The translations under genes were made by a program, and so were the position numbers. 56,609 bases of DNA from Dendronephthya gigantea (lineage: Eukaryota), in NCBI RefSeq assembly GCF_004324835.1, contig NW_021163190.1:319242-375850 (forward strand). Reading direction: 5' to 3'. Positions 1,578 through 53,539 of this stretch are shown here, in pieces. The notes below the pieces were generated by a model. It worked only from the letters and a program-made list of their open reading frames with translations. It had not been told where the DNA came from and did no database searches. Each line of letters opens with the position of its first letter. The stretch's first letter is position 1.

Positions 1578-2083
1578 GGGCAGGGGGGTTGCCAACATCC
1601 ATACATTAGGGGGGCAAGCATATTTACAGGGCACCATCGTCATAGATTAAACCACTGATCTTCTTAATATATCTGGACTAGTCTTGGTTTTGACTGACCT
1701 TCGCAAATTCTGGAAATCATTATCAATTTGAAAGCTTTTGAAACTAACACAGTTATTTGGAAATGCAAACAAGAATGGTGTGAACAGATTTGATCAATGA
1801 TTTATTCATCAAACTCAAAAAAATAGAATGCATTTATTTACAAATATCAAATATTTTTCAACTATTTAAATAGTTTTCATATTATGTACAATATTCTTGG
1901 ATGAATTCACCATTAAATAATATTCACGAACAGAACTAATATTCAACAAAACAAATTATCAATAATTTTTGTGAACTTTATATATATTGTTTTCCTCTGT
2001 AAACTTCAATGAAATGGTTTTATGCATGAGTCAATTCGAACTCCCCCCCGGGCGACCCCAGGAACACTACTGCAAAATAATTT

Positions 2084-2132
2084 ATCCCGGGGGGCGGATT
2101 GTCAAACAGATTTCATCCCGGGGGGCGGAATC
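2084..2132 (+). promoter_or_regulatory. Two GC-box-like motifs (atcccggggggcgga, twice; core GGGGCGG), with a third cccccccgggcga at ~2044
   Basis: Direct sequence observation. They lie 3' of the Misato stop and 5' of the palindromic CRE/CCAAT element. Confidence 0.4.
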
Positions 2133-2170
2133 TAGTGAAGGAGAGGTATACGTAAATAGGATCCACTAAA

Positions 2171-2297
2171 TAGACCTTTTTCATGATGACGTCAAACGCG
2201 GGAGGTCCGATGTTACACGAAGTTTGATTGGCTCAATGACTTTTGTGGAGCCAATCAAATTTCGTGTAACATCAGACTTTCGCGTTTGCCGCCATTT
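2171..2297. mobile_element. Palindromic (MITE-like) element carrying TGACGTCA (CRE, 2187..2194) and a CCAAT/ATTGG pair (2226..2231, 2251..2256). Copy 1, with the right arm degenerated to gccgccattt.
   Basis: Near-perfect hairpin. The same about 140-bp element recurs at 45139..45278 with both arms intact. Confidence 0.65.
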
Positions 2298-2319
2298 ACT
2301 TCAAAAAGCTCCATTCAAA

Positions 2320-2413
2320 ATGGCGAAAAATTCAAAGCAGTTCTTTCGGGAAAGTCCAGAAGTTGCCGCGTGGTTAGAAAGAAATTTAGGAAAGCTAAAG
2401 GCAAATTTTGAAG
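2320..2413 (+). CDS. Putative first coding exon (MAKNSKQFFRESPEVAAWLERNLGKLKANFEG) with ATG in the context aaaATGg, followed by donor GTATGG
   Basis: Lies immediately 3' of the GC-box + CRE + CCAAT block. It ends at a consensus GT donor. No downstream exons identified. Confidence 0.25.
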
Positions 2414-2951
2414 GTATGGATTTTTAAAATGTGTAAATTTCAAACTTTTATGTAAAGCGGCGGTTAAAAACATTAAAAACATGATGAAAAACAATACTAT
2501 CAAGATCGGAGACGAAAAAGCATTCTGGTGAAGGGTTTATTTTGCTAAATAAAACTATTCTTTGCAGTTAGTTGTGTTAAATAAATGCAAATTCATATCT
2601 GTAGTTAACAAGAGGGTAGATTTAGCATTTCGTATTTTGAAGTTTTAATAAAAGAAAGAAACGATATAAGTAATATAAATAAAAGAAACGACATAAATAA
2701 TCTTGGGAGAAGGGAATTTGCTCATATAAAATGAAAAAATATATACAAATCTCAGGGGTACTGCCCGAAGGGAAAATCGTAATAGTTCAAATTGACTCAC
2801 ATAATATAATATAGAGCGCCATAGTTTATTATAACAGGACTGCCTTTCTTATTTTTTTCATAAGGTTGCCTCCAGTATTTTTCACACTAAAAAAATATGA
2901 GATATACGTTAGATAAAGGTAAATTTGACCGTGAAAATGATAAGAAAAGAT

Positions 2952-3440
2952 ACATCAACTATCATTGCCTGATTAAAGCATTAAAACAAGAACAAGAGTT
3001 GCATGAGAGTTGACAAGTGAGGGTTTACATGAGAGTTTCATCAACTATCATTGCTTGATCAAACGAGAACTAGAGTTGCATGAGAGTTGACAAGTGAGGG
3101 TTTACATGAGAGTTTCATCAACTATCATTGCTTGATCAAACGAGAACAAGAGTTGCATGAGAGTTGACAAGTGAGAGTTTACATGAGAGTTTCATCAACT
3201 ATCATTGCTTGATCAAACGAGAACAAGAGTTGCATGAGAGTTGACAAGTGAGAGTTTACATGAGAGTTTCATCAACTATCATTGCTTGATCAAACGAGAA
3301 CAAGAGTTGCATGAGAGTTGACAAGCGAGAGTTTACATGAGAGTTTCATCAACTATCATTACTTGATCGAACGAGAACAAGAGTTGCATGAGAGTTGACA
3401 AGCGAGAGTTTACATGAGAGTTTCATCAACTATCATTGCA
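2952..3440 (+). repeat. 77-bp satellite (tcatcaactatcattgcttgatcaaacgagaacaagagttgcatgagagttgacaagtgagagtttacatgagagtt), about 6.3 copies
   Basis: Exact period of 77 measured (copy starts 3038, 3115, 3192...). The same family occurs inverted at 11822..12330 and 19890..20085. Confidence 0.9.
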
Positions 3441-3448
3441 AAACATTC

Positions 3449-6400
3449 TCACCTTTTCGGCCGACATTTAACCATTTTCTTAATGCCTTTCGTCTTTTTT
3501 GTCACACGTTTGGCCGCTTCTTTTGTCACCTCAACTTGTTTGGCGGCTTTCTCTTTTGATTTTTCCGTATCTTCCTCAACTTGTGGGGTGCTGTCTGAAG
3601 TCTTCATCGACTGTCTTTGCGTTTTAACTTTATTCATCAACTCGTACTGTTTCCGCATCGTTTGAAAAAACTGTAATTTCCGAGAAACGAAGAACGCTTC
3701 GTCGACATCTGGTCCCATTATCCAAGCATAATGATTTTCGAGTTTCTCCAAAACTTTTTTCTTGTTCTTTGTCTTCCAAGGCGTCTTTTCTTCCTCGATA
3801 CTTTCCTTGACTTGGGCAATTCGCCCTTGTAAAATTTCTGTCCATTCAGCTAAAGAAAGTTCTTCTTTCTGCTGCGTCTCTTTCCCCGGTGACGTGGAGC
3901 GCGCAATCTCCAGGGGTTGAATCTCGTGGAGCTGGGGGTCATTTTCCTGGCCATTTTTGTCGTAGGTTTTTTCTTCCCAGGGTTGAGTTGGGCTTGGTTT
4001 TCTCACCGAGGGTTGAATATCGTGGGGGTTTTTCTCCGAGGGACTTAACACTGGGGAGTTAGGATCTGCTGTTGTTATTATGATACGCGAATTACTGTCT
4101 TTTGTGACGAGAAGCAAGTTATTAAGATCCTTAGGCGGACATATCGATGTCTGTGTTGTCGTTTTGGGCACGTCATCAGTAGTGAAATCGCCATCTTGAA
4201 TTCCGCCTTCTTCCGACAATTTCCGACGTTTGTACTGCTCCGAAACAAGTTTCGTAGAATCATGGAACTTGTACGATTTCTGACCCGAGCTTTTTCGCTT
4301 TCGATTTTCGTCGCCGGATTCTCGGTTTTCCTCGGCCAAAAATCCCGTCTCTAATTCTTTCCAGGAATTTCGCCTGATGTCAGGAGAGACAGTTGAATTT
4401 TCACTACAACTATCCTTTGTCGCGTTACTCTGCTCAAGTTTCAGCGAATAAGTCTCCCACTGCTGCGATACAGGTTTCTTATCACGTGAGCCGACTATGC
4501 TGTTCACGTGAGCTTCGGACTTTGCTCCCTTGGGTGTTGCATCCTTTTTGACAACGCTAAAATGAAGTACATTCAAATCATCGCCGAGCTCGGGACTCTC
4601 CGTCTTGTGTATTACATCATCTTCTTCGGGTATGACGATGTATTTTATACCAGAGTCCTTTGCAGGTTTTTCTGAGCCCGCACTCCCGCATTGCAGCAGT
4701 TGCTTCAATTCGTTGTCCAAACCAATGACCTGAGGTTTTAGCAAATTTTTCAATTCACTTTTCGAGCCCAAAGACTCCTGTTTCAGCGGTTGCTTGACCT
4801 CCGGTGACTTCTTCACACCGACCACGATTCCGGTCGGTTTTGGACCAACTTTAGGTAGTTTCACGACGGTCTGGTTGCTGTCGGTTCCAGGCTTCTCAGT
4901 GAACTCGGTGTCATATTTGCGACATAAAAGTTCGTCACGTGGCATTGTCTTCAAAGGCTTGCTGTCATCCAGGCAGTCTTGAATACTCGATTTAAATTTT
5001 TCAACAAATTCGTTCTTGGTAATGCAATTCTCTCGGTTTTTTAATCCGTGTGACGAATATCTCGGTTCATAGGTAAGACTCCTAGATCGTTCACTTTTGA
5101 ATTCCGGCCTGCTTTCCGTCCGATCATATTCCGAAAGAGATCGTATCAACTTCGGCATGCCTTCGTAGTTTCTCGTCGGCTTTTGGTATTCTCCAGAGTT
5201 TACAGAACCGCTCCTTTCCGGGAAGGACTGGCGACTGGAAGAAATGTCCATTCTCTGATCGAAACTCAGGCTTCCATCATTGGCGTGGTTCTTGGAAACA
5301 TTTGACAACATTCTGCGAATTTTTCTCGCAGCATCCTGGAGAGAATTCCCAGCGATTTCTGCGGATCCCGCGACAAAATACTCCGATTTATCATCAAGAC
5401 ACCTCTTAAGTCCCCTGCTCTCATCCGACAACAACTGCTCACTCATGATGGCACTCTGTGTACCTGAATGTCCCGCACTTTCCCGCTCGTATAGAACAGA
5501 CCGATAACTCGTGCTCAGCCCATTCCCCCCATGCTCGCGGTTCGTTCCCAAGCCATTCTGCTTGTAGTTCGACGTGGTCACCTCTTGACTATCATTCGTA
5601 TTATTGTTGAAATCATAGGAATCTCTTCTGACCCTACTCGGCCCAGTTTCATCAATCGTCTTACGGCCGAGTTTTTCGCTTTCTAACCGAACGGACTGTT
5701 CCCCGGGTGCTTTAACCCCGGTAATAACACAGGCACTTTCACCATCGCTATTACGAGATGGATTTAAATCCACATTCTCCCGTAGAAAATCGTCGCTACC
5801 TCCATCTATTCTGTAAACCGGACTGGCAGCTGTGAAAACATCTCCATTTTCGTCGCTGGAAAGCGGTGAAGATATCTTCAATCCTTCGTCTTCCGAATCT
5901 GATATGACCACAACGGTTGGTGAACTACGACGCTTTTTTCTCCGTTGCGCCTTTCGCTGTTCAATAATGTCCGCAACTTTCATAGCTAACAAAGTCGAAT
6001 TCTTCACATCACCGGCATTTAGTCCCTTCGAATTAGGTTCCTTCGAATTTGGTCCCCCCGAATAAGGTTCCCTTGAAACAGGTTCCTTCGAATTCGTTTC
6101 CCCTGAATAAGGTTCCCTCGAAATAGGTTCCTTCCAAATAGGTTCTTTCGAAATAGGTTCCTTCGAATTTAGTTCCTCCGAATTAGGTTCCTTCGAGTTT
6201 AGTCCCTTCGAATTTGGTCCCTTCGAATAAAGTTCCTTTAAGTTCTTTGGTGCCTCGACATTTCGCACCACGGAGCAAAGTTTCTCGATAGATTGACTTG
6301 ATGCTCTTGTGTACCCGGCATTTGTGTCCTCGGAGTTTCGTACTACGGGATTGTGTCCCTCGGTAGCAGATGTTCTTATCTCGGTATTTCTTGTATTTGA

Positions 6401-6691
6401 ACTATATTTCGCGTAGGTCCAATCTTCCCGGGAGGTGTAAGTGCCGGTAGTAGAAGTTTCAGAATATTGTGAGCCAACGTGACCGGTACTATATCTCCTC
6501 ATATCACTGGTGGGTTGAATATTTGCCACATATTTCCCCGCTTGGATTGTGGACTGGGGTTTCGAGGTGAGGGTTTGGCCTATGGGTTGTGAGTGTGTCT
6601 CGCGATGGGGTAGAGTTTGGCCTATGGGTTGTGGGTGTGTCTCGCGATGGGGTAGAGTTTGGCCTATGGGTTGTGGGTGTGTCTCGCGACG
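3449..6691 (-). CDS. Large single-exon gene, 3' part (frame A). Low-complexity Ser/Lys/Glu-rich protein with (NSKEP)n repeats, a lysine-rich C-terminus and a predicted helical C-terminal segment. Function unknown.
   Basis: 1026-codon open frame in AT-rich DNA. The frame stays open upstream of the listed GTG 'start', through the 42-bp repeats, reading PHRETHPQPIGQTL repeats, up to the 1-nt deletion at ~6690. Confidence 0.55.
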   Translation of the reverse strand, partial: RRETHPQPIGQTLPHRETHPQPIGQTLPHRETHSQPIGQTLTSKPQSTIQAGKYVANIQPTSDMRRYSTGHVGSQYSETSTTGTYTSREDWTYAKYSSNTRNTEIRTSATEGHNPVVRNSEDTNAGYTRASSQSIEKLCSVVRNVEAPKNLKELYSKGPNSKGLNSKEPNSEELNSKEPISKEPIWKEPISREPYSGETNSKEPVSREPYSGGPNSKEPNSKGLNAGDVKNSTLLAMKVADIIEQRKAQRRKKRRSSPTVVVISDSEDEGLKISSPLSSDENGDVFTAASPVYRIDGGSDDFLRENVDLNPSRNSDGESACVITGVKAPGEQSVRLESEKLGRKTIDETGPSRVRRDSYDFNNNTNDSQEVTTSNYKQNGLGTNREHGGNGLSTSYRSVLYERESAGHSGTQSAIMSEQLLSDESRGLKRCLDDKSEYFVAGSAEIAGNSLQDAARKIRRMLSNVSKNHANDGSLSFDQRMDISSSRQSFPERSGSVNSGEYQKPTRNYEGMPKLIRSLSEYDRTESRPEFKSERSRSLTYEPRYSSHGLKNRENCITKNEFVEKFKSSIQDCLDDSKPLKTMPRDELLCRKYDTEFTEKPGTDSNQTVVKLPKVGPKPTGIVVGVKKSPEVKQPLKQESLGSKSELKNLLKPQVIGLDNELKQLLQCGSAGSEKPAKDSGIKYIVIPEEDDVIHKTESPELGDDLNVLHFSVVKKDATPKGAKSEAHVNSIVGSRDKKPVSQQWETYSLKLEQSNATKDSCSENSTVSPDIRRNSWKELETGFLAEENRESGDENRKRKSSGQKSYKFHDSTKLVSEQYKRRKLSEEGGIQDGDFTTDDVPKTTTQTSICPPKDLNNLLLVTKDSNSRIIITTADPNSPVLSPSEKNPHDIQPSVRKPSPTQPWEEKTYDKNGQENDPQLHEIQPLEIARSTSPGKETQQKEELSLAEWTEILQGRIAQVKESIEEEKTPWKTKNKKKVLEKLENHYAWIMGPDVDEAFFVSRKLQFFQTMRKQYELMNKVKTQRQSMKTSDSTPQVEEDTEKSKEKAAKQVEVTKEAAKRVTKKTKGIKKMVKCRPKR
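6000..6245 (-). repeat. 15-nt coding tandem repeat (ggttccttcgaatta; about 16 copies) encoding (NSKEP)n-like pentapeptides inside the large gene
   Basis: Direct observation. The period is a multiple of 3 and preserves the frame. Confidence 0.85.
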
Positions 6692-8048: not shown

Positions 8049-8809
8049 CCTTAAGTCTCAAAATTGTTTCGAAGTTACTCAGATGATCTCGACGAAGCGA
8101 ATTTGTAACGTTTGTTAGATGAGGATTTTACATTAATGTGGTTCAGATCTCAGTTTAACTACTACTTTTATTACCATCGAGGGAACATCGACCAAGAGAG
8201 AAATTTTAGGCTTGCATTTATTAGAATTGATGTCATCGATGTCATAATAGAAATGACTTGAAATTTGCATAGCGGAAAAAATTCGTCGGGATGGCTACGC
8301 CATTGCAAAGAAGGTAGTTTTCATCTCGTTTTTGTATCATTTGCGAGAAGAATTTTCAATGCTTCCGTCAAGTAAACTTCTATCACGTTGAATACTTTGA
8401 AATCATCTAGTTCGGTTTATAAATTTCAAAAATTTGTATGCGCGACGGAGAATATAATCTTAACTGCCTGAAACTCGCATAAAAAACGAACTTGAAGATC
8501 TTTGCGAGACGCAAGATCGATATCAAATGGATTTGAAGCCATCTCAATTTAGATAGACAAAGATTGACTCTCAGACACTCAGACTCCAGACATGCTTCCA
8601 ATAGCAATATTATTATTTAATTACAGAGTGCTTGAACAGTACCCTAAGAACGAACAGACGTTTTTGAGACGGGAACATCGATTCGGCGCCAGAATAAATT
8701 GCTTCGCGCGCTATTTCAATTGTTTACATAATATATACCTGCATATCGTGTAGACATCACACTTAAAATATTTGGATGTCAGGATATATTTCAGGTATCC
8801 ATTTTGTTT

Positions 8810-11447: not shown

Positions 11448-11821
11448 TGGGGTACGCCTACTTTCATTGGCAACCAATCCGAGATTTCTCCCCCAAGTTT
11501 AACGTGATGTCGGCGCTTAGTGAGGAGGTAACAGAGACAATCTAACACCTATGCCTAACAGCTTTGATATTAATAAATTATGCCCTATACGGTCGAACGC
11601 CTTTGCGAGATTATGCCATTTACCGCGATCCTATTTCATATAAACAACATCCTAAGCGACACAAGTAGAAATATATTTGTTTTGGTGACGAGACGGTCCA
11701 ATATATTACTTGCTTTAAATGCGTGGAATGAGGGTTGCTAGAATAGACTGGCGCTCTAGTTGCATCGCATTGTTTGGCCGAAGCGTCCAAAATACGCTCG
11801 TGAACGCGACTCTCGTTTCAT

Positions 11822-12330
11822 GAAGCAATGATACTGATAGTTGATGAAACTCTCATGTAAACTCTCGCTTGTCAACTCTCATGCAACTATTGTTCTCGTT
11901 TGATCAAGCAATGATAGTTGATGAAACTCTCATGTAAACTCTCGCTTGTCAACTCTCATGCAACTCTTGTTCTCTTTGATCAAGCGATGATAGTTGATGA
12001 AACTCTCATGTAAACTCTCGCTTGTAACTCTCATGCAACTCTTGTTCTCGTTTGATCAAGCAATGATAGTTGATGAAACTCTCATGTAAACTCTCGCTTG
12101 TCAACTCTCATGTAACTCTTGTTCTCGTTTGATCAAGCAATGATAGTTGATGAAACTCTCATGTAAACTCTCGCTTGTCAACTCTCATGCAACTCTTGTT
12201 CTACTTTGATCAAGCAATGATAGTTGATGAAACTCTCATGTAAACTCTCGCTTGTCAACTCTCATGCAACTCTTGTTCTACTTTGATCAAGCAATGATAG
12301 TTGATGAAACTCTCATAAACTCTCGTAAAT
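11822..12330 (-). repeat. 77-bp satellite, inverted array
   Basis: Reverse complement of the unit at 2952..3440. Confidence 0.9.
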
Positions 12331-12339
12331 TCTAGGGTT

Positions 12340-14590
12340 TAAAGGGTCTTAATTTCGAGTGGAATTTTACACACTTCAAATTGTCAATAGTCAATATTTT
12401 TTTAATATACTAGGCAGCAAAAATGTGATTAATTGCTTTGTAAAAGGTTAATTTTTATGGTGAACGCAAAATGATTTCCACGACATCGTTTTTAAATTTG
12501 ATTTCATCCCGTTCGCTAACTACAGGGTGTCTCAAAAAAAACGCAACACTTAAATATGCAAGAACATTAATACAGCTCTAAAGCGCAATAGATAAGCACC
12601 TCTGGGAATTGAAAAGGCCTCTTAATCCTTCATTTAAAATGCTAAAAGTCATTTTAGCTGAAGTGTAGTGCAAACCCGAACAATATTATAATATTCTTGC
12701 ATATTTAAGTGTTGCGTTTTCTTTGAGACATCCTGACATCCTGTTTATCGTAACTTTTCAGCCAGTTTAAGCCTCTGCATTAAATAAATACTTTTCAAAA
12801 AAAAAACATTTACCCCGCCGAAAATCAAAATTAATCCATGCTGGGACTAAGAGCGCTATATTGTGGCTCTAGCCTGAAAATTTACAGGGCGTATAAAAAA
12901 AACTGCAACCCTAATAATTCCAAGGGGGCGACGATTTTTTTTTGCTGAATAAAAGCGAACAGATTTGAATATTAATTGTGGTTGCAGTTTTTTTATATAT
13001 ATTCTTCCATACCGGCTTCTGGGTAAGTCTACACTGACATTCAAATGTATTACGAAATAAACTAGTTCTTTATTTGTTACATAAATTTTCAATGAAAATT
13101 TAATCGTTCACGTCAACCCGTCACTTCCACCGACGAATTAGTTGGATAATTGAAATAATAATGAACTGCAATTAGATGCTAATTGCTCGCAATAAAGTTT
13201 GTGAAATGATTCATTTCTTCGCAACGTTCGGCGGTCGACAGCGAAAAGTAAGTTGAAAGCGAATATCTCCATTCAATATCATCTCTTTGTACTGCCGAAG
13301 ATTTTTAATACGATTTCACCTAAGTTTTCCTTGCAAGGCAAGTTTTCCTTGCCAAGTTTTATTTGCTCTCTCGTACGCGATAAACATGTTTTTCTTTGAC
13401 AAGAAGTCTTGTTCAAAAGTTTTCCTTGACAAGGAGGCTTGTTCAAAAGCTAGTCATGACTTCAAAAGCTTTTCAACAAGGAAAAATGCTCGCGTGCACG
13501 GTCGTCAAGGAAAACTTGACAAGGAATTGCGCAGTAGGGAACAACAATCTTCCAGCCAATCGAGCAGGTTTTTAAAGTTTTATATCATCTTTATTCAAGA
13601 AAATTTTTCGCCTACACACGAGGAAATAAAACTCGGCAAGGAAAGGTGGAAAACTTGTTCGCCATATACACCAGCAAGTGAACTGGTCAGGAAAACTTGT
13701 TAAGGAAAACTTGGCAGTCTGCGTATGGGGCTTTATCAAAATATTCAGGCCTACAATGTAACGTTTAATCTTGCCGCAACCGTACATGATGGTCGTACTA
13801 AACATTAAAGAAAAGCCGGCTCGCACGAAAAAAACGTCACTGCCAGGGAATTGGTGTCGTCAACCATTCATTTAAATGCATTGAAATGGTGTTTCGAGGA
13901 CAAGCTCACTATCATCTGAGACATCTGAGGTATAGACCTCGCGAGGTTGTTAGCTCAGCAAGTTACTCTCGTGTGCGGATAGTTTTTCGTGAGGAATTCA
14001 CCTCGAGAGGCAAGTTTCTCGCGTTTGTGGATAGATTTCGGGCGCACACTAGGCCAACTAGTGACACGACTCGTGTGCGCTGGCATTTAAGGCATCAGAT
14101 CATAATTGACTAACCTTCTGGCTAATTGTGGTATACTTGTCCTCGCTATTTCGTACTCTTTTATCTCCAATCTGCAAAAAACATTAAAAAATATGTCACG
14201 TACAATTTCCCATTCGTCATTTTTGATGGAGTATCGTCTACGCTTTCTGTCGGTGGAGTGAAGGTTCTCAGAACCCCATCACCAGAATGGTATCAGATGA
14301 CGTCGAGAAAAATTATATGAGCCTTCTGGTATTCGCCTTGTCTAGGGTATATTTGTATAATGAAGAAGGTTGGATTCCTTGGTATGTGAAAAGATAATTT
14401 AGAATAGCTTAAGGCGTTTAAAAAGGCTGCTTTCGCAGGAAGTTTTGCAAGAAGTGTAGAGTCCTTCCAACGAACCGGTTAGAGAAAATGTACAGACGAG
14501 TTTATACCTAAGACAACCTAATCAAACTGAGGTGTTTTGACAGAGGTGTTTGTTCAAAACTGACCTTTAAAGTATTGTTCGTCGGTTAAA
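12340..14590 (+). repeat. About 2.2-kb dispersed repeat, copy A (non-coding, family unknown)
   Basis: Colinear with 20800..21800 (copy B, internally deleted) and 23870..26575 (copy C, 5'-truncated, with extra insertions). Confidence 0.75.
12523..12735. mobile_element. TA-flanked MITE with TIR CAGGGTGTCTCAAAAAAAACGCAAC
   Basis: Absent from the paralogous site in copy B (~21000). Confidence 0.6.
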
Positions 14591-19625: not shown

Positions 19626-19889
19626 GGTTTTTTCCCGCGCGCTGCAGGCTCAACGTTTGTCTGCTCACGGACGGCCTGTTTTGAAATTTACAATGCAGAA
19701 CACAAATATATACAACTTAAAAAACACTAAACTATGCCCATAAGCAACATTGTAAGCGACACAAGTATAAATATATTTGTTTTGGTGGCGAGACGGTCCA
19801 GTATATTACTTGCTTTAAATGCGTGGAAATGAGTGTGCTACAGTTCTAGAGTGCTAGTCAAATAGACTGGCGCTCTAGTTGAACGCGAC

Positions 19890-20085
19890 TCTCGTTTGAT
19901 CAAGCAATGATAGTAGACGAAACTCTCATGTAAACTCTCGCTTGTCAACTCTCATGCAACTCTTGTTCTCGTTTGATCAAGCAATGATAGTTGATGAAAC
20001 TCTCATGTAAACTCTCGCTTGTCAACTCTTGTGCAACTCTTGTTCTCGTTTGATCAAGCAATGATAGTTGATGAAACCATGGTTT
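19890..20085 (-). repeat. 77-bp satellite, paralogous shorter array
   Basis: Same unit, preceded by the same ~130-bp unique segment as 11640..11770. Confidence 0.9.
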
Positions 20086-20509
20086 GGCAAACTGAATCGC
20101 GAAGAAATTTAACATACCTAACTCCTATACCAAATAAAGTCCTTGGCTCCAACGTCAGTCCACGATTAACACGAACTTCAACGAAAGTCGTTGCCCGGCT
20201 GATTACCGCGCAAACATGCACACTGCGATATTTATGTCATTTGAATTACAAAGTGTTGACCGGTTTGGCATTAAATAGGCGAATTTCAAAGACAGTTTTG
20301 ATACTTTCCGTCAAGACAAACACCTCACACCACGCATTGTCAATAAGGACAATGTACATTTCATTAAGAGCCTAATGGTGCATGAAATTAATATTATGTT
20401 AATCCCCCAAAGCAAACGGCTTTGAAAATGTTGAGTTTTTTGTGTGTCGAGGTGATTTTCCAAAATCTTATGTTTGCATAAGCAGAAATCACCAGATTAT
20501 GGAAAGATA

Positions 20510-35339: not shown

Positions 35340-38300
35340 TGCTACTAGTTGTGTGCGAATTCTAAACAGGCTCAAGCGATGCAGACATTTGACTGATCTC
35401 AAAGATATACTGTTTCATGTTTTCCCATATAACTTGTCAAAAAAAAAGACCACTTTACTTTCTCGAATTGCTTTCGGATATGAAACTAACTACGCGAGAG
35501 TTTATCTTTGATGATGTCTCTAATGCAAATTCTTTAGACGCGCCTAACAAATAAAATCCCCCTCAAAGAATGTGTCAAAATGGTTTAGAATTTATATATC
35601 ATGTCTTACAGCGTAATGAGTTATGAATTACAGCTTCTCGGGTAGCACTTCGTTTTCTAAATGCAACTTTGAACCTAATTTAACAAGGTATAGTTGAGTT
35701 TCGTTTGCATTTAATTTGAGAACATGCTTGACGTTTGAAACGAATTTTTGTGAACGCGATTGTAAAAAGCTTGTAATAGGCTTAGGCCTATCGATACAGA
35801 CGTGAACTTAATAACTCCAGATATGATCGAGTTGAAATTCGATTTCAGCTGAGAGCCATTGAGATTGTATCGTATTGTTACACAATATATATCTTTAACA
35901 AGTGCACGGAATTTGCAAGGAATTCACTAGTTTCGTAATATTTTTAAACCAAAGTTTGTATGTATCGTGTAAGATAGATTAGATTGAAATTGAACACGTA
36001 TTATTTTGTAAATATTGTACTCTGTACTTGCCGTCCAAATAGTTTTCATTTTCAATGACTATGGGGAGTTTTATTTGCTCTATAAATACATCTAGAAATT
36101 TCTAGAAATTTGGTGCATAAACGCATTTATAAATTCAGTCATCGGGTTAGTTCCATTGCTCTGCTTCTAATCAGTGGCCCCTGTGTTTGTTAAAAAGGTT
36201 TCGTAGGTTAAAGGTAACCTTTTTTAAAAAATCCACTCTTGCTTGCGTGGTGGCCTGGTGGGTGAACAGCGGTTAGTCCATTAAGTTAATAGGATACAAT
36301 TGCCATCATCTCTTTTTTATTGCCGGCTGAATTTAACGTGTTATAACTTGCGCCCCTCTTGACCAAGTTCATGGTCGGCATAATTTGCATGGTTTGCGCA
36401 ACGCTTATATTTCAAAACATTGGAATTTCGATAGAAGTATAATGTTGCACTAGTAGATAATATATTGTTTATAACTTCATCTTTTAAAAGCCACGGGGTC
36501 CATAGAACCCGTTTAACATGACATTAATACTTAATCGTCTTAATGCTAGTTTCAAGAACTTTTCCATTGGGTAATCAGTGTTAAGGCTGCTTTCCAGTTA
36601 CGCGTTTTTTATACGCACGTACACGTACGGAAAATTTGAAATGCTTTTAGATTTTTATTATTTAACATCTGGGTAACGCATGCTAAAATCGAACTCGAGA
36701 CCATCAATGACGCAAAGAATTTTGCCGGGAAGTCTATTTGGAATGATTGCAGATTTTCTGCTTAAAAAATCGTGATCAGTCAAAGAGAAATTATTCATCC
36801 GCGAATCAGAAAACGTTTGACAACAGATTTTATTCTTTCCGGAACAGTGTTCTGGGATTTGAACCCAGAAGCCAAACAGTGCATTTCAACAATGGAATTT
36901 GAAAGACAGGACTTCGTCTTTTGCCATAGCTTTGGTTGGCCATACGGAAAAGTTTTCGTATGAATTGGCATTGAAATTGTATATAGTTTAAAAAAGGGAA
37001 GTAATTTTGATGAATTTGTTTGGCCCCAGACATGGACACTGTTTTTTACAAGCCAAACGAAAAGGAGGGAAACCGGAGTACCCGGAGAAAAACCCTCCTG
37101 GTGGTCTGCGGTATTGCCCATTACCAGGCAGTAACACTGACTACCATACGATGGTCCGAATTTGATATTTTTGATTTTGAAATTCCGCAATCGTTAGTTG
37201 GGAGGGTGGGACAGTACACCCCACCCACCCCCCTATAGTCCGAATTATTGCTTCTCGCTTCTCATTGGCTGGCTTTCAAACGCATCACAGTCAGTAGAAC
37301 TCGCCATATTCATTTGCTAGATTGCTACGCAATATTGATCCGCCATTTTGTTTTTTTCGCCATTTTGTTTTTTCGCCATTTTGTTTTTTCATATAATGCT
37401 CTAAGAATTTGTTCGCCGTTCATATTTTCAGTCAATTTAGGTGATTATATTTTACTTTGGTTATCTAATAAATATTCGTCTGACAATTGCCATTTATTTC
37501 AATGCTTTCTCCGTGGAAAAATCGTGCAAAAAACCCAGGAACAAGTCATTGTTCCAACATGCAGCTAATTTTTGGCCTTTGTCAGACGTTCCTGGTGGTC
37601 TAAATAGGTTCTTTATTTATTGTTTATTTTATTGTAACTTTTGAATGCCTTTTAACTTCGAACGCGCGCTTGTATGAAGGACATTTACATTTACTACAAT
37701 TTTTCTCATGATCTCATCAACTGATTTCAAATTTCGATGAAATTTGAATAAAATCTCACAATCATGACATGCATTTACATACTATACTTCAAATTCATGA
37801 TTACTATGATATGGTGCTCGATATGTAATCAATTATGCTTAAATTTTGCGTTGTAATGCAATGCAATGACATTTTTATCAAAACTGAATTGTTGCCAAGC
37901 GAAACTGTCGCTTTATCGAATGATAATACTGGAAATAAAGTGATTGTATTCTCAAATAACTGATGTCTAGTGAAAATTTGCAGCCTAGAATGTGTCGTGT
38001 GTAGCTCAGCAGACATCGTTTGTTATTATGAATTGATTTCTGTTATTCTTTTATTTGAAACAGACGCTTATAGACAAGATCATCCAGTATCCTCTCGTGA
38101 AATATCATAAAAATTCTGTTTTACCAAACTGAAAACGACCGCTAATTTTACCCTGGGTTAAGTTGCTTCGAACATCGAGAAAACACAGAAGGGAATATTC
38201 AATAGAGGGGCTTATAGAATTATCAAAATATATATTTGATACTTATCTTCGTAAACTTGAACCATATTCTGGATTTTTTAGATCACGGATCAACCAACAG

Positions 38301-44923: not shown

Positions 44924-45138
44924 AGGGTGATTAATGTTTTCGCCTTATTAATAGCTTTATGATGTCTTAAACCGGTTTTTTAAATTATGGAATGGAATAC
45001 CAGAAATACCTCTCATGCAATCATTATAAAGTTAAGTATATATAATATAGTCAAATTGTTTGAATATTATCAGTTAGCAAATGTATAATAATAGTTTGCG
45101 TGTATTAGAAATAGCCGTTTCATTTTGTATATAGTTAA

Positions 45139-45278
45139 TAGACCTTTTTTATAATGACGTCAAACGCGGAAAGTGTGATCTTACACGAAGTTTGATTAGC
45201 TCGATAGTTTTGTGGAGCCAATCAAATTTCGTGTAACATCAGACTTTCCGCGTTTGACGTCATTATAAGAAAGGTCTA
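45139..45278. mobile_element. Palindromic CRE/CCAAT element, copy 2. TGACGTCA on both arms (45155..45162 and 45255..45262); CCAATC at 45218.
   Basis: Perfect hairpin tagacctttttt ataatgacgtcaaacgcgg ... ccgcgtttgacgtcattataagaaaggtcta. Confidence 0.7.
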
Positions 45279-45400
45279 TTGCACACGCCAGTCACGTCTC
45301 ATGGAAATCAGCAAATGTTGATTGAGACAAGTAATAATAATCTGTTTATTAAAACCAACTTGCAGTATTAAAACTGAATTACATGGTTATATACTCTACC

Positions 45401-46778: not shown

Positions 46779-46832
46779 TAACTCGACCATGGTCGAGTTC
46801 GCCGGAAAACGACTAATTCGACCATGGTCGAG
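46779..46832 (+). repeat. 35-bp satellite, the segment between the MITE and the copia element
   Basis: Same unit. Confidence 0.9.
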
Positions 46833-47154
46833 TGTTAAAGTATGCTCTATTATATTCCAAATATTCCAATATATATGTATCAATCAACTGTAAATAGATT
46901 TAATTTAGATTTATGAGTGATCAAATGATTCCATAGATTCCATAGATGCAAGTGTAGTAAATGTTTCTTTAATGAAAGCCAAATATGGTAACCAAATGTA
47001 AAATGAAATGTTATCCGTCCTAAAGAGATTATCATGTAACCACTTATATATAGATGTAACTTTCCTTGTATACATCAGAGTGAATAAAACTGTGTAACCC
47101 TAAAGTTGTGCTGTGAATATAAAGGAGTGGCAAATGGCTACCCAAAACTCAACA
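46833..47154 (+). repeat. copia 5' LTR
   Basis: About 2 mismatches over 322 bp against the 3' LTR. Confidence 0.9.
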
Positions 47155-47353
47155 GGTTATGGGCCCAGGAGAGCTCTGGTCTTCGATGGAAACGAATCGA
47201 AGTACGAATTATGGGAGGTAAAGTTTTTATCCTTTATGCGGATCCAAAAACTTTACAACTATTTTTGTGCCTAGCAGCGATGAGCGTGAGCTAGATTAGT
47301 CGAAGAATGCCGATGCCTTCGCCGAACTTGTACAGTGTTTAGATGACCGAAGC

Positions 47354-50300
47354 TTGTCCCTAGTCATAAGGGAGGCAAAAGATGAGGGTCGAAAGGCTTT
47401 AACAGTGCTGAGAGAGCACTACCAAGGAATAGGAAAACCCCGAATTATAGCCCTGTACACCGAACTTACTTCACTGAGAAAGGGGGAAAGCGAGTCAACA
47501 ACGGACTACATCATACGAGCGGAGACCGCGGCGACAGCGCTGAAAGCAGCAGAGGAAATAATAAGCGACGGCTTATTAATTGCAATGGTTTTGAAAGGCC
47601 TTCCTAGGAACTATAAAACATTCTCTACTGTGATAATCCAACGAGAAAAGCAGATGACATTCAGCGAATTCAAAATAGCCCTGCGAAACTACGAAGAGAT
47701 TGAAAAGAGTTGCCATGGTACGGAAGGCAAAGACAACGTGATGTATGCCGCCAAGACGAAATTCGACGGAAAATGCTTCAAATGTGATAAGAAAGGTCAT
47801 AAGAGTTCCGAATGTTGGCTAAAGAGCGAAAAATGGTGTGCCAAATGTCGAACCAAGACCCACAATACAAGAGATTGTAGAGCCGCAAAGAAGGACGCAG
47901 CGAAGCTTATCAACGGACAAGTGAAGAATCAAGATTTGGATGAACATTCATTCGCATTTACGTTAAAAGATGGTAAAGGTAGGAGTACGAAGAATTCGAA
48001 GCTTCTCGTGGACACTGGGGCGACCAGCCACATAATTAATGATAGGTCTAGGTTTGTAAGCTTTGACAAGAACTTTGATCCGAACAGTCACTTTATAGAA
48101 CTTGCCGATGGAAGCAAGGCTAACGTAGTTTTAGGGAAGGGAAATGCAATGGTTAAATTGTTTGATGTAAGGGGTAATGTACAAAATCTAATGCTAAGCG
48201 ACGCACTTTATATACCGTCCTACAGTCAAAATATTTTTTCAGTTTCGGCAGAAATAGGTAGAGGAGGATCGGTTGCTTTAGGAGAACAGGTAAGTAAATA
48301 CACTACAGCTGAAGGTCAGGTATTTGAGATAGAAGAGAGAGAGCGTTTGTACTATTTAAATAGTATCTCTTCTTCGTGTAACAATGCTACCTCCATTAAT
48401 GAGTGGCACAGGATTTTAGGCCATTGTAACTTTGGAGATGTGCGTAAATTAGAGCAGGTAGTCAAAGGGATGAAAATCATAGACCACAGCGAGAAAGATT
48501 GTGAAGTATGCATTCAAGGAAAGATGTGTCAGAATAGAAACCGAGAGCCAGATCAGAGAGCTAAAGCACCTTTAGATTTTGTCCACTGTGACTTGGCAGG
48601 GCCAATTGAGCCCGTTGCCAGAGACGGATTTAAATATGCATTGTCTTTTATAGACGATTATACAGGTATCAACATGATATATTTCTTAAAGCGAAAGAGC
48701 GACACTTTAGAAGCCACAGAAAAATTTTTGGCCGATGTTGCGCCTTATGGTAAAGTTAAAAGGATACGAAGCGATAATGGTGGTGAGTTTACGAGTCAAG
48801 AATTTAAATCTCTCTTACGAAAGCAGTCAATAAGACACGAGACGAGTGCCCCGTATTCCCCTCACCAAAATGGAACTGCAGAAAGAGCGTGGCGAAGCCT
48901 TTTTAGCATGGCTAGGTGCTTGCTATTGGAGGCAAAACTACCAAAACGGTTGTGGACCTACGCTGTGATGGCTTCAGCCTACATAAGAAATAGATGCTTC
49001 AACCAACGCTTAGAGAAGACACCATTTGAGGCGTTGACAGGTAAGAAACCAAATTTAAATAATATGCATGTATTCGGCACAACACGCTATGCTTTTTTGC
49101 AGAACACCAAGAAAATAGACGCAAAGAGCCGTAAAGGTATATTTATAGGGTACGACAGAGGTAGCCCATCTTACTTGATATACTATCCGGAATTAGACAA
49201 GATAGAAAAGGTACGTTGTGTCAAATTCATTGACAACTTCCAAGGCAAAGACAATAAACTCAACGATCTTGATGAGTTTGTACCCGCCAGAAAACCTTCG
49301 AGTACTAGCAATGAAAACCCCAAAATGCCGAGTACAGTTGAGGAGAGCTCGAATAATCTCGAAACAATCAGCGAAAATGTAACAAACAACACCGAGGTGG
49401 TTGCCGAGGGAGATAGGTATCCAACAAGAGTTCGCAATAAGCCAAATTATTTCGATCAAAGCAAATTAGATGACACATTAGGTGAGAATGTTAATTACAC
49501 TGTTGATTATTGCTATAGAGTTGCGAACATTCCAGTGTGCTATAAACAAGCACTTGAGTTGCCTGAGGCAAACAAATGGCAAAAGGCAATGGAAATTGAG
49601 ATGAAAGCGTTGACAGATAATGACACTTTTGATTTAGTACCGCGACCTAAGGATAGACAGGTAGTGGGGGCAAAGTGGGTTTACACTATAAAAACAAATC
49701 AAGAGGGAGAGGAAAAATATAAAGCTAGATTTGTAGCGAAAGGGTATTCTCAAGTTTCAGATATAGATTACCAAGAAACGTTTGCACCAACTGCACGCAT
49801 GAGTTCGATCCGAATGTTATTACAACGTGCCGTGCAAAACGACATGATTATTCACCAAATGGATGTGAAAACAGCATACCTTAATGCGCCAATCGACTGC
49901 GAAATATATATAGAACAACCTGAAGGTTTTGAAAAGCGAAATGATAGCGGTGAAACGTTAGTTTGTAAGCTGAAAAAGTCGCTATATGGTCTAAAACAAA
50001 GCGGCAGGAATTGGAATAATCTACTCCATCAATATTTGATTAACGAAAACTTTATTCAATCTCTTGCAGATCCATGTGTGTATGTGCGTACAATAGATGA
50101 TAAACGATGTGTGATCGTAATCGTTTGGGTCGACGATATCATAATCGCCTCGAGTGATTCAAATTCACTACAGAGCGTGAAAAAGTCTCTTAAAGAAAGG
50201 TTTAAAATGACCGACCTAGGGATTCTAAAATGGTTTTTAGGCACTGAATTTCAATGCAGTGAAAACACAATTAAAATGAGTCAAACCCGGTACATTGAAA

Positions 50301-51088
50301 AGATTCTTGAGAAATTCAAAATGACCGATTGTAAGCCAAAGCCGACGCCGTGTGAGTTAGGAGTAGACAAAGTTTTGGAAGTGGAATCTCCTGAAATGGA
50401 GGACCCCGGGCTTTATAGAGCTATAGTAGGTAGTCTCATATATGTAATGACTGGCACTAGGCCAGATCTGTGTTACATCGTGACAAAATTGTCACAGAAA
50501 ATGTCAAAACCAACCCAGGCAGATTTAACTAAGGCAAAGCACGTTTTGAGATATCTAAAAGGTACTTCAAAATTTGGTCTAACGTTCACAAAGTCCATTA
50601 ACCCCCTCATTCTTCAAGGTTTTTGCGATTCAGATTGGGGAGCATCTATCGCAGATAGACGGAGTATAACAGGATACAACTATCAACTAGCGCAAAAGGG
50701 ACCGTTGATATCATGGAAGAGTCGCAAACAGCCGACAGTGGCACTATCCACCTGTGAAGCGGAATATATTGCATTGACAAACGCGATGCAAGAAGCAAAA
50801 TTTCTGAAACAACTCTGCATCGACATGAAGGTAAGTATACATGAAGGTAAGGCTTTCATAAAGATAGATAACCAGGGAGCGATGAATCTGGCGAAGAATC
50901 CTATTCATCATCAGAGAACAAAACATATAGACATCAGGTACCATTTCATTAGGGAAGAAGTGAAGGAAGGACGAGTTAGTTTAGAGTACGTTTCAACAGA
51001 GGAAAATATTGCAGACATATTTACAAAGCCAGCCAGTAAAATAAAATTAGAAAAATTTAAAGAGACCATATTAGGTAAGTATACATAG
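47354..51088 (+). CDS. copia Gag-Pol polyprotein, 1244 aa, uninterrupted
   Basis: CCHC knuckle CFKCDKKGHKSSEC. Protease LVDTGATSH. Integrase HHCC (HRILGHC...CEVC) and D,D,E (HCDLAGP, FIDDYTG, ...PHQNGTAER). RT ...VWVDDIIIA. RNase H DSDWGAS...TGYNY...STCEAEYIAL. Confidence 0.92.
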   Translation: MSLVIREAKDEGRKALTVLREHYQGIGKPRIIALYTELTSLRKGESESTTDYIIRAETAATALKAAEEIISDGLLIAMVLKGLPRNYKTFSTVIIQREKQMTFSEFKIALRNYEEIEKSCHGTEGKDNVMYAAKTKFDGKCFKCDKKGHKSSECWLKSEKWCAKCRTKTHNTRDCRAAKKDAAKLINGQVKNQDLDEHSFAFTLKDGKGRSTKNSKLLVDTGATSHIINDRSRFVSFDKNFDPNSHFIELADGSKANVVLGKGNAMVKLFDVRGNVQNLMLSDALYIPSYSQNIFSVSAEIGRGGSVALGEQVSKYTTAEGQVFEIEERERLYYLNSISSSCNNATSINEWHRILGHCNFGDVRKLEQVVKGMKIIDHSEKDCEVCIQGKMCQNRNREPDQRAKAPLDFVHCDLAGPIEPVARDGFKYALSFIDDYTGINMIYFLKRKSDTLEATEKFLADVAPYGKVKRIRSDNGGEFTSQEFKSLLRKQSIRHETSAPYSPHQNGTAERAWRSLFSMARCLLLEAKLPKRLWTYAVMASAYIRNRCFNQRLEKTPFEALTGKKPNLNNMHVFGTTRYAFLQNTKKIDAKSRKGIFIGYDRGSPSYLIYYPELDKIEKVRCVKFIDNFQGKDNKLNDLDEFVPARKPSSTSNENPKMPSTVEESSNNLETISENVTNNTEVVAEGDRYPTRVRNKPNYFDQSKLDDTLGENVNYTVDYCYRVANIPVCYKQALELPEANKWQKAMEIEMKALTDNDTFDLVPRPKDRQVVGAKWVYTIKTNQEGEEKYKARFVAKGYSQVSDIDYQETFAPTARMSSIRMLLQRAVQNDMIIHQMDVKTAYLNAPIDCEIYIEQPEGFEKRNDSGETLVCKLKKSLYGLKQSGRNWNNLLHQYLINENFIQSLADPCVYVRTIDDKRCVIVIVWVDDIIIASSDSNSLQSVKKSLKERFKMTDLGILKWFLGTEFQCSENTIKMSQTRYIEKILEKFKMTDCKPKPTPCELGVDKVLEVESPEMEDPGLYRAIVGSLIYVMTGTRPDLCYIVTKLSQKMSKPTQADLTKAKHVLRYLKGTSKFGLTFTKSINPLILQGFCDSDWGASIADRRSITGYNYQLAQKGPLISWKSRKQPTVALSTCEAEYIALTNAMQEAKFLKQLCIDMKVSIHEGKAFIKIDNQGAMNLAKNPIHHQRTKHIDIRYHFIREEVKEGRVSLEYVSTEENIADIFTKPASKIKLEKFKETILGKYT

Positions 51089-51184
51089 GTTCATAATTGC
51101 GCATATAATTTTAAAGCGATGGCCCGCCCTGCTGCACGCCATCAAATAAATAATTTACTATAGAACATAAAGAGCAAGTGGGGG

Positions 51185-51506
51185 TGTTAAAGTATGCTCT
51201 ATTATATTCCAAATATTCCAATATATATGTATCAATCAACTGTAAATAGATTTAATTTAGATTTATGAGTGATCAAATGATTCCATAGATTCCATAGATG
51301 CAAGTGTAGTAAATGTTTCTTTAATGAAAGCCAAATATGGTAACCAAATGTAAAATGAAATGTTATCCGCCCTAAAGAGATTATCATGTAACCACTTATA
51401 TATAGATGTAATTTTCCTTGTATACATCAGAGTGAATAAAACTGTGTAACCCTAAAGTTGTGCTGTGAATATAAAGGAGTGGCAAATGGCTACCCAAAAC
51501 TCAACA
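51185..51506 (+). repeat. copia 3' LTR
   Basis: See the 5' LTR. Confidence 0.9.
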
Positions 51507-52680: not shown

Positions 52681-53242
52681 TCAGATCGCTTTTGATAAAG
52701 CCTAATCTTCTCTGAGGGAAAGTTAAGCTTCATTGCAACGCAATTTGCAAAGGCGTAGGTTTAATTTTTGCCTTGGAAACTTGTATGATTACAAACTTTC
52801 CTCAAATCTTTCTGGCTTTAAAATATGTATAGTCAGTGGGCCTCGATTGATACCTTGGAAATTGGCAAGACTTCTCACCGCAATTCTCAATACTTTGGCT
52901 TCAAATTTGGTGAGAAAAAAGCTTTATAAATACTCAACAAAATATGTCTTGCACAAAAGGTCTGAAGCTTGCACACAATCGTCTGAATTAATAACCTTGT
53001 TTATACTTAAGCTTCAAAATGGCCATTTCACAGCTGTCAGATGTGTATGATGAGCTGTCAAAAGATTGTAGAATGCGTATCCGGAAGAAATATTGAACTT
53101 TTTAAAGTTATTCAATAGTTTTCTCTTTGATAGCGATACAGAAATGCACAATTGGCAAGTGTCTATTTGGCCATCTCTGTAAAAGTTGCAATCTTAACAT
53201 TAACTTTAATTTTCATTCCAGGTAATTTTGGCTGACGATATT

Positions 53243-53527
53243 ATGAGGCTGCCAGCACCGTTACGAAGATTCCTTGCTGAATCAGAAGATGAGGTCTACT
53301 TTCTTATCCGCCTGTTGATATTCACCGTCAATGTCATTGCGTGGATATTTTCGATTTTCTTCATATGCATTGGAATATGGATTCTTCAGGAGAAAAATAA
53401 TCTGGGTGTTGACAATTTGAGTTCAGACCCGGCCGCAGTGCTGATTGCGATTGGTACCATATTGTTCCTCATCACCTTCACCGGTTGTATCGGCACTTTG
53501 AGAGAGAATTTGTTTCTTTTGAAAGTG
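53243..53527 (+). CDS. Tetraspanin exon 1 (MRLPAPLRRFLAESEDEVYFLIRLL...TM1...TM2...NLFLLKV), donor GTGAGT
   Basis: Two hydrophobic TM segments. ATG at 53243, in frame. The track ORF begins at a TTG upstream. Confidence 0.7.
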
Positions 53528-53539
53528 GTGAGTCAGTAG

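Follow-up and report, generated by a model that had tools for sequence, protein, structure and literature searches.

A promoter-like block downstream of Misato in the octocoral Dendronephthya gigantea is probably nested mobile DNA

Introduction

Vertebrate TATA-less housekeeping promoters contain Sp1, NF-Y, CREB and YY1 sites, and YY1 motifs can overlap the start codon. In the rice MITE Youren, a CCAAT (NF-Y) motif promotes transcription of the element, and the family has been proposed as a dispersed source of cis-elements (PMC9314911). For octocorals, our literature search found no papers describing MITEs, and the genome paper of Dendronephthya gigantea, which reports about 12% repeats, chiefly tandem repeats and LTR elements, leaves MITEs unmentioned (PMC6447388).

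We analysed a 56.6-kb stretch of genomic DNA (the window), in which a preliminary description had pointed to a promoter-like block followed by an ATG exon and had read it as a MITE-like element exapted as, or mimicking, a TATA-less promoter. The block resembles TATA-less housekeeping promoters in its motif content, approximate motif order and spacing to a AAAATGGCG start, but differs from them in that its motifs all come from two repeats and in that it lies in a 3'-3' spacer with neither a downstream gene nor conservation. The palindromic repeat within it, about 145 bp long and non-coding, shares with hairpin-type MITEs its inverted-repeat arms, its AT-rich ends, its dispersal across non-homologous positions of several related genomes, its presence or absence at an orthologous spacer, and the occurrence of copies in introns and near gene ends; it differs from them in showing no clear target-site duplication (TSD), at most a self-complementary TA being possible, in being best conserved in its internal CRE/CCAAT segments rather than at its termini, and in having no known autonomous partner, none of its copies adjoining a transposase in the window. 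It also resembles Youren, both being MITE families with a consensus CCAAT box beside an inverted repeat, whereas Youren is a plant MITE with measured transcription and the octocoral palindrome, known here from sequence alone, has two inverted CCAAT boxes and two CREs in a symmetric arrangement. The outer insertion, which we call element X, resembles non-autonomous hAT, P or PIF-type deletion derivatives in its 16-nt terminal inverted repeats (TIRs), its G/C-run motifs near both ends, its lack of a long ORF and an insertion site unoccupied in relatives; unlike them, it has flanks that share only CA, and one copy was seen.

Results

The translated Misato exons (250-525 and 867-1574) were, along the whole translation, 100% identical to XP_028415286.1, protein misato homolog 1-like [Dendronephthya gigantea], which identified the window as DNA of this octocoral. 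Downstream of Misato lies a convergent gene on the minus strand, and its minus-strand orthologues adjoin Misato in L001, L006 (Xenia), L007 and L008, so that the promoter-like block sits between two convergent 3' ends in a gene arrangement kept in four other octocoral-like loci (Table 1). At the Xenia locus, 228 nt separate the coding regions of the convergent pair in the NCBI annotation, with zero genes annotated there. The D. gigantea spacer retains two conserved blocks. Block 1, which carries an invariant CATTAAATAATG (ATTAAA at 1912-1917), probably corresponds to the terminal part of the Misato 3' UTR and includes a putative poly(A) signal, and block 2, beside a TTTATT at 2826-2831 that reads AATAAA on the minus strand, is probably the end of the convergent gene's 3' UTR. 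The 77-nt tandem array that follows is also lineage-specific spacer filler, and its unit is arrayed elsewhere in the window at 11817-12387 and 19813-20154.

Table 1. Coordinates of the features in the window
Feature	Position	Strand	Remarks
Misato homologue, last coding exon and stop codon	867..1577	+	identity to XP_028415286.1; stop = 1575-1577
Conserved spacer block 1	1790..1981	+	aligns to L001 10948-11131, L007 11437-11597, L008 2519-2751; 66-69% identity, E about 1e-13
Element X, insertion bounded by terminal inverted repeats	2027..2799	.	773 bp; D. gigantea lineage-specific
Left TIR of element X	2027..2042	+	16 nt; pair = TGAGTCAATTCGAACT / AGTTCAAATTGACTCA
Inverted C/G-run motif CCCCCCCGGGCG	2043..2054	-	sequence reading and end-to-end alignment of element X
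Tandem duplication bearing both GC boxes	2074..2129	+	31 nt; exact 15-mer ATCCCGGGGGGCGGA at 2084-2098, 2115-2129
GC boxes GGGGCGG	2091-2097 and 2122-2128		both GGGGCGG sites of the window
Copy A, decayed palindromic MITE-like repeat	2169..2318	.	~145 bp; nhmmer E = 3e-41
CRE TGACGTCA	2187-2194		in copy A
Inverted CCAAT pair	ATTGG 2227-2231, CCAAT 2251-2255
YY1-like motif gccgccattt	2288-2297		reads AAATGGCGGC on minus strand
ATG ORF	2320..2427	+	35 codons unspliced (stop 2425-2427); 31 codons to donor-like AAG/GT at 2413/2414
Degenerate partner of CCCCCCCGGGCG C/G-run motif	2761-2772		near opposite end of element X
Right TIR of element X	2784..2799	-	16 nt; pair = TGAGTCAATTCGAACT / AGTTCAAATTGACTCA
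Conserved spacer block 2	2833..2902	.	aligns to L008 2773-2854 (E = 2e-7), also L007 and L001
77-nt tandem array	2907..3516	.	abuts and overlaps stop codon of convergent gene
Convergent neighbour gene, last large coding exon	3449..6529	-	1026 codons; orthologues adjoin Misato in relatives
Copy B, intact palindromic repeat	45137..45280	.	per arm, outside to inside: AATAGACC, TATAA, TGACGTCA, CCAAT

The entire promoter-like block and the ATG ORF are contained within element X. Its TIRs are 15/16 complementary, a comparable pair occurring in 0/300 shuffles, and their sequence has only these two matches within the window; an extended alignment of the two ends scored 13 versus 2.4 ± 1.3 in shuffled sequence (0/2000 shuffles). 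The orthologous site was empty of element X in three relatives (L008, L007 and L001), where blocks 1 and 2 are spaced by 20-100 nt, compared with about 850 nt in D. gigantea. Neither the window nor the eight loci searched contained a further copy of element X or an autonomous relative, and the lack of a second copy counts against a mobile-DNA reading. So does the absence of any TSD exceeding 2 nt at element X and at the palindromic repeat, and a classical cut-and-paste insertion thus stays putative.

The individual features of the preliminary description (two GGGGCGG boxes, a CRE, inverted ATTGG/CCAAT, an aaaATGg ORF of 31 codons and GTATGG) were all found where it had placed them, as was the gccgccattt into which the right arm of the palindrome had mutated. 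The second palindrome that it reported with both CREs intact was recovered as copy B, which is 89% identical to copy A over 129 nt and retains both TGACGTCA sites, at 45155 and 45255. The left arm of copy A is close to the family consensus, and its right arm is decayed: the CRE has changed to GCCGCCAT, 3 nt have been gained by insertion and no TATAA-like end is left. The palindrome core accounts for four arms in the window versus 0 expected from shuffles, and, folded as a DNA hairpin, copy A has a z-score of -8.3 and copy B one of -17.8 (-60.9 kcal/mol), the arms of the latter being 93-96% complementary. The repeat is 144-150 bp long and has no Pfam match; copy B has stop codons in all frames.

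Other copies of the family lie at non-syntenic positions in L001 (558-686), L003, L002/L004 and L007, and an alignment of 12 arms shows the strongest conservation in the CRE and CCAAT core rather than at the extreme termini. The 82-83% identity of this family is unexceptional, since other MITE families common to the window and L001 show 78-84%. The element is missing from the Misato spacer in L001, L008 and Xenia. The L007 Misato spacer does contain a copy, but it lies on the other flank of block 1 from copy A; orthology of the two was therefore rejected, and their positions point to an independent insertion. Among six copies, none stands at a recognisable gene 5' end; three follow shortly after stop codons or poly(A) regions (12 nt past the stop in L007 and about 270 nt in L003) and one is intronic. 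In five copies, a systematic TSD scan that varied both the boundary offset and the length (2-10 nt) left at most TA or AT as possibilities, both self-complementary and thus indistinguishable from the palindrome's own inverted repeat. The palindrome core had no matches in viral and prokaryotic genome collections, and a literature search by sequence string returned nothing relevant to it. With Rfam, no family reached the gathering score across the whole window at the gathering threshold or across 1900-2700 at permissive E-values, the best sub-threshold matches (E = 0.13-0.27) being hairpin look-alikes. A metagenome match (L005) was rejected as a chance 24-mer in a bacterial helicase-like coding region, and a parvovirus-like hairpin telomere or endogenous viral element was set aside, the copies being solo 145-bp units without adjoining viral genes. 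That the palindrome is a MITE-like dispersed repeat carrying CRE and CCAAT motifs is supported.

A motif cluster with spacing suited to a promoter is present by sequence, and all of it derives from two repeat units. The GC boxes, said to lie immediately 3' of the Misato stop, are in fact about 515-545 nt downstream and past block 1, and they are not independent evidence, since both belong to one 15-mer, ATCCCGGGGGGCGGA, that is repeated at an interval of 31 nt. Copies A and B contain every TGACGTCA site present in the window, three in total. Since TGACGTCA and the paired CCAAT belong to the consensus of the palindrome family, they are not local adaptations, and since the CRE and both CCAAT boxes were brought by one repeat, they too are not independent of each other as evidence. 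The NF-Y-type CCAAT boxes stand 93 and 69 nt upstream of the ATG at 2320, and the order of GC boxes, CRE, two CCAAT boxes and a YY1-like site resembles that of a genuine TATA-less promoter, which counts against a mobile-DNA reading.

The ORF begins with aaaATGg in a frame that is open from 2167 (an 85-residue open frame), and its putative donor, AAG/GTATGG with the GT at 2414-2415, fits the consensus at 7/9 positions (AAGGTATGG at 2411-2419). The window contains 225 ATG ORFs of at least 31 codons, about 4 per kb, and 194 GT sites scoring at least 7 on the two strands, so that both the ORF and its donor occur at chance frequency. Two observations count against mobile DNA. The codon-usage score of the ORF (0.235 per codon) is coding-like, in the top ~3% of non-coding ORFs (non-coding ATG ORFs, -0.06 ± 0.15; real coding windows, 0.27 ± 0.15), and the start context AAAATGGCG is enriched tenfold in the window (7 observed vs 0.67 expected), a context that is also the true Misato start in L001. 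An exhaustive search among 1.84 billion representative proteins found no homologue of the peptide; two protein matches (E = 2e-5 and 1e-4) were rejected, their scores being inflated by internal repeats of 2,200-2,300-residue proteins. The 85-residue open frame matched no Pfam family and gave no candidates in a word-index search, a weak negative given that the index also missed the 100% identical Misato protein. A tblastn search with the peptide found no counterpart in any of the related loci, and no counterpart of 2040-2430 was found in L001, L007, L008 or L006, barring non-orthologous MITE copies. No downstream transcription unit was found for the ORF, the next coding sequence being the convergent gene's last exon at 3449.

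Discussion

The promoter-like block is probably nested mobile DNA rather than a host promoter. Because the block and its ORF lie inside a TIR-bound insertion between converging gene tails, they are most likely ordinary mobile DNA instead of the start of a gene. A 773-bp non-autonomous element resembling a DNA transposon, with 16-nt TIRs and G/C-run subterminal repeats, would have inserted in the D. gigantea lineage, presumably mobilised by a transposase acting in trans. Its landing site would be the narrow gap between the putative poly(A) regions of Misato (+) and the large gene (-), where an insertion would harm neither transcript. Nested within element X, the decaying palindromic repeat of ~145 bp would have contributed the CRE and CCAAT boxes, both arms of its family consensus being equipped with TGACGTCA and a CCAAT box as well as a TATAA-like end. 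The apparent GC boxes would be subterminal repeats of the outer element, the YY1-like GCCGCCATTT a decay product of the inner element's right arm; the 31-codon ORF with its GT would have arisen by chance or be left over from the outer element. The first half of the earlier proposal, a MITE-like dispersed repeat, is borne out, whereas convergent 3' ends, a lineage-specific insertion and a peptide without homologue speak against a gene 5' end; exaptation of the repeat as a promoter is, as judged from these features, unproven and disfavoured, and the block presumably lacks promoter activity.

A transposon-borne start site is conceivable, in line with the exaptation idea of the preliminary description: along with the YY1-like sites, the GC boxes, CRE and CCAAT pair brought in by the nested elements might drive a lineage-specific transcript starting near 2260-2320. 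Such a transcript would be non-coding or would encode a micro-protein of 35 aa unspliced or 36 aa spliced, the latter if 2413 were joined to the acceptor ttctttgcag/TT at 2567/2568, giving a peptide that ends in ...NFEVSCVK and a stop codon, with AATAAA at 2580-2585. We consider this unlikely. The motif cluster and its distances from the ATG, the enrichment of a start context with which a genuine gene begins in a relative, the codon usage of the ORF and the precedent of the transcription-promoting CCAAT (NF-Y) motif in Youren (PMC9314911) all favour it; however, the site lies between convergent 3' ends with no room for a conserved gene (as the 228 nt in Xenia indicate), the sequence is missing from three relatives, the peptide lacks a homologue, and neither the ORF nor the donor exceeds chance. 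Moreover, one CRE and both TATAA-like ends of the intact copies are missing from copy A, and 0/6 palindrome copies lie at a known 5' end.

It is still more doubtful that element X is an internal-deletion derivative of an autonomous transposon whose transposase gene supplied both the 5' subterminal region, with its G/C-run repeats and promoter, and a genuine first coding exon running from the ATG at 2320 to the GT, the palindromic MITE having arrived afterwards in the promoter or 5' UTR of this gene. DNA transposons carry a promoter in their 5' subterminal region, and the order of TIR, subterminal repeats, ATG, coding-like ORF, donor, AT-rich remainder and TIR fits a deletion derivative. Against this, the N-terminus was unmatched among the 1.84 billion representative proteins, Pfam assigned no family to the 85-residue open frame, and a second copy of element X or an autonomous relative was not found in the window or the loci.

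Read outwards, each arm of the intact copies runs from CCAAT through about 30 nt to TGACGTCA, TATAA and the element end. From this layout the palindrome could be taken for a portable, symmetric, outward-facing promoter cassette that spreads through octocoral genomes, at roughly one copy per 20-30 kb in the loci seen, and seeds new start sites or read-out transcription, copy A having become the source of a transcript or micro-protein gene specific to D. gigantea between the convergent genes, although we regard this, too, as quite improbable. Transcription of the hairpin within a neighbouring 3' region as a source of structured or small RNAs seems very improbable: hairpin RNAs derived from MITEs are processed into small RNAs, the hairpins here are very stable, and the L007 and L003 copies, by their distances past stop codons, are likely in 3' UTRs, but no Rfam family reached its gathering score (best E = 0.13-0.27), copy A lies outside both putative poly(A) sites, and arm-to-arm complementarity is typical of any palindromic transposon.

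Read as nested mobile DNA, the locus carries a caution: two nested transposons in a harmless convergent gap can assemble a convincing TATA-less promoter signature, here Sp1-like, CREB, YY1-like and two NF-Y motifs ahead of an ATG with a splice donor. The palindromic repeat and element X are apparently two octocoral repeats new to description. Should the palindrome prove to act as an outward-facing promoter cassette, the hairpin family would offer a natural system for the spread of NF-Y/CREB sites by mobile DNA in cnidarians, and possibly also for the distribution of new genes among them.

Results

Misato, on the plus strand, adjoins a large minus-strand gene whose last exon is a 1026-codon ORF, and this convergent pair is conserved in three octocoral-like relatives (L001, L007 and L008) and in Xenia sp., where the two coding regions lie just 228 nt apart with no annotated features between them in the NCBI annotation. 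Two pieces of the 3'-3' spacer, blocks 1 and 2, retain 66-69% identity in the four octocoral-like species, compared with just ~50-56% for the Misato C-termini there, and are probably the 3' UTR/poly(A) regions of the two genes, the invariant CATTAAATAATG in block 1 being Misato's putative ATTAAA poly(A) signal and the TTTATT before block 2 the presumptive signal of the convergent gene. These presumed 3' regions nearly abut in the relatives, with 20-100 nt between the blocks in L001, L007 and L008 versus ~850 nt in D. gigantea. A pair of TIRs delimits the extra DNA; they are 15/16 complementary, match nowhere else in the window and had a comparable pair in 0/300 dinucleotide shuffles, and alignment of the two ends extends past the TIRs via a C/G-run motif. 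A lineage-specific insertion of 773 bp, the outer element, therefore contains the whole promoter-like block (2040-2420). Nearby, a 77-nt tandem-repeat array overlaps the convergent gene's stop codon, and L001 carries a perfect 16-nt palindrome with a CRE, TATGTGACGTCACATA, unrelated to the MITE, just inside that gene's 3' end region (11944-11961).

Coordinates of the features (window positions unless a contig is named)
Feature	Position	Remarks
Misato, spliced translation	250-525 + 867-1574	100% identical, full length, to XP_028415286.1, 'protein misato homolog 1-like [Dendronephthya gigantea]'
Spacer block 1	1790-1981	D. gigantea, L001, L007, L008; CATTAAATAATG
Outer element	2027-2799	773 bp
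Left TIR	2027-2042	TGAGTCAATTCGAACT
Right TIR	2784-2799	AGTTCAAATTGACTCA, inverted copy of TGAGTCAATTCGAACT
GGGGCGG	2091, 2122
GC-box repeat, inverted copy	2043-2054
GC-box repeat, degenerate partner	2761-2772	near right end
Palindrome copy A	2169-2318	inner element
CRE	2187	TGACGTCA
ATTGG; CCAAT	2227; 2251
gccgccattt	2288-2297	YY1-core-like, mutated right arm
ATG of ORF	2320	31 codons, then AAG before GTATGG
Spacer block 2	2833-2902	D. gigantea, L001, L007, L008; preceded by TTTATT
77-nt array	2907-3516
77-nt unit, inverted relative to that array	11817-12387, 19813-20154
Convergent gene, last exon	3449-6529	minus strand
Palindrome copy B	45137-45280	both CREs intact; 89% identity
Palindrome copy	L001 558-686	82-83% identical; ~7.4 kb upstream of L001 Misato start
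Palindrome copy	L003	~270 nt past stop of intronless FAF2/UBXD8-like ORF
Palindrome copy	L002/L004	amid proprotein-convertase-like exon fragments
Palindrome copy	L007 10768-10908	12 nt past Misato stop

Every motif reported in the preliminary description, namely the GC boxes, CRE, paired CCAAT boxes, YY1-core-like arm, ATG exon with GT donor and second palindrome copy, was recovered at its stated position, but the promoter motifs are not independent, because the GC boxes belong to two exact copies of a single 15-mer spaced at a 31-nt period and one repeat brings in the CRE together with both CCAAT boxes. Both occurrences of GGGGCGG in the 56.6-kb window belong to the block, where they are repeats close to the outer element's left end, and 3/3 occurrences of TGACGTCA fall in palindrome copies. 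Within 2285-2330, TTTGCCGCCATTT of the mutated right arm pairs in inverted orientation with AAATGGCGAAAAA of the ATG context over 13 nt, with 85% complementarity and a distance of 20 nt, which yields two opposed YY1-core-like sites; the pairing may be coincidental.

The inner repeat (~145 bp) is palindromic along essentially its entire length, far beyond chance. Alignment of 12 arms gave the consensus AATAGACCTTTTTyATAATGACGTCAAACGCGGAAAGTCTGATGTTACACGAAATTTGATTGGCTC followed by a 12-13-nt loop, with ATGACGTCAAAC and GAAATTTGATTGGCTC as its best-conserved segments, so the CRE and CCAAT boxes are family properties and not adaptations of copy A. Intact copies carry TATAA on each arm between the CRE and the terminus (outward order CCAAT, CRE, TATAA, end); in copy A one CRE and the TATAA-like ends of both arms have been lost. 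A profile search found two copies only in the window and none in the Xenia locus; the L008 locus also has none, and the copies outside the window (L001, L003, L002/L004 and L007) stand in contigs that belong to other species. The search for target-site duplications found nothing above 2 nt, and within the window nothing resembling the repeat adjoins a transposase. None of the copies, on whose number (n=6) all statements of abundance and position rest, lies at a recognisable gene 5' end. Three of the six were seen just 3' of coding regions; the L007 copy is probably within the Misato 3' UTR and the L002/L004 copy probably intronic. Since the L007 copy lies upstream and copy A downstream of block 1, the two are independent spacer insertions. 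The cross-species identity is normal for shared repeats, as other MITE families common to the window and L001 stand at 78-84%. A match in L005 was discarded as a chance 24-mer in a bacterial coding region.

The 31-codon ORF and its donor are unremarkable, because 225 ATG ORFs in the window reach 31 codons, placing this one at chance frequency, and 194 GT sites that by window-wide tally match the consensus at least as well as AAGGTATGG (7/9 positions, read by eye). No homologue was found among 1.84 billion representatives, whose sole matches were rejected as repeat-inflated artefacts, no Pfam family was assigned, and tblastn gave no counterpart of the peptide in related loci. A word-indexed protein database also returned none, a weak negative for so short a query, given that with 196 residues as query the index overlooked a D. 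gigantea protein of 100% identity, which a query of 328 residues did retrieve. No plausible continuation precedes the convergent gene, except a 5-codon terminal exon (2568-2584) constructed by eye. These results weigh against the ORF being an exon. In its favour, the ORF's codon usage (0.235 per codon) approaches that of real coding windows (0.27 ± 0.15) and ranks within the top ~3% when set beside 171 non-coding ATG ORFs, and AAAATGGCG, the word at its start, was counted 7 times in the window versus 0.67 expected (~tenfold enriched), the sole L001 occurrence, at 8062, being the exact Misato start codon context. With these hints, two minority readings stand: an active transposon-derived promoter, which we consider unlikely, and a first exon left over from a gene that the outer element once carried, which is more doubtful still. 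That the palindromic hairpin is a small-RNA source is very improbable.

Further AAAATGGCG sites lie at 17281, at 27433 (ATTGG box ~65 nt upstream; 17-codon ORF ending in AG before GTAAAC), at 37341-37382 on the minus strand (three tandem copies beside a CCAAT box) and at 39057 on the minus strand (NRF1-like GCGCATGCGC ~90 nt upstream). Each of these falls in unique sequence and could be an unannotated start site.

The full-length identity of the Misato translation assigns the window to the soft coral D. gigantea. The window's GC content (37.9%) and CpG observed/expected ratio (1.06) agree with the published genome GC of 37% (PMC6447388) and repeat CpG ratio of 1.03 (PMC8857923), and its composition thus suits D. 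gigantea. Minisatellites, MITE-like repeats and retroelements are abundant. A second MITE-like family forms an inverted pair in the introns around a Misato exon (1-240 and 590-830), with a 78-84% identical copy in L001 (6563-6674). An apparently intact Ty1/copia-type retrotransposon (46832-51483), flanked by 35-nt minisatellite arrays, has an uninterrupted 1244-codon ORF (47354-51088) and 300-nt direct repeats (46832-47131 and 51184-51483) whose 99% identity suggests recent insertion. A tetraspanin first exon (53228-53539; Pfam PF00335, E = 4e-13) continues straight into a minisatellite of more than 40 copies of a 17-nt unit (53445-54300).

Discussion

We favour, with reasonable confidence, the reading that the promoter-like block consists of two nested non-autonomous DNA elements in the convergent-gene spacer. 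The MITE-like character proposed earlier holds, the inner element showing most MITE features, and the outer one resembles a TIR transposon of the deletion-derivative type; nested insertion is preferred to a promoter with first exon. The promoter look would arise from the outer element's subterminal G/C-run repeats together with the CRE and CCAAT boxes that belong to the consensus of the inner element, and the YY1 core would be a chance reading of the one mutated arm. Vertebrate TATA-less promoters can have YY1 motifs overlapping start codons, and the block may be likened to them by analogy. Among published functional systems the nearest is the rice MITE Youren, in which a CCAAT (NF-Y) motif promotes transcription (PMC9314911). 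No description of MITEs in octocorals was found in the literature, so both elements, though of a well-known kind, are probably undescribed. They would occupy the sole part of the spacer where insertion spares both convergent transcripts.
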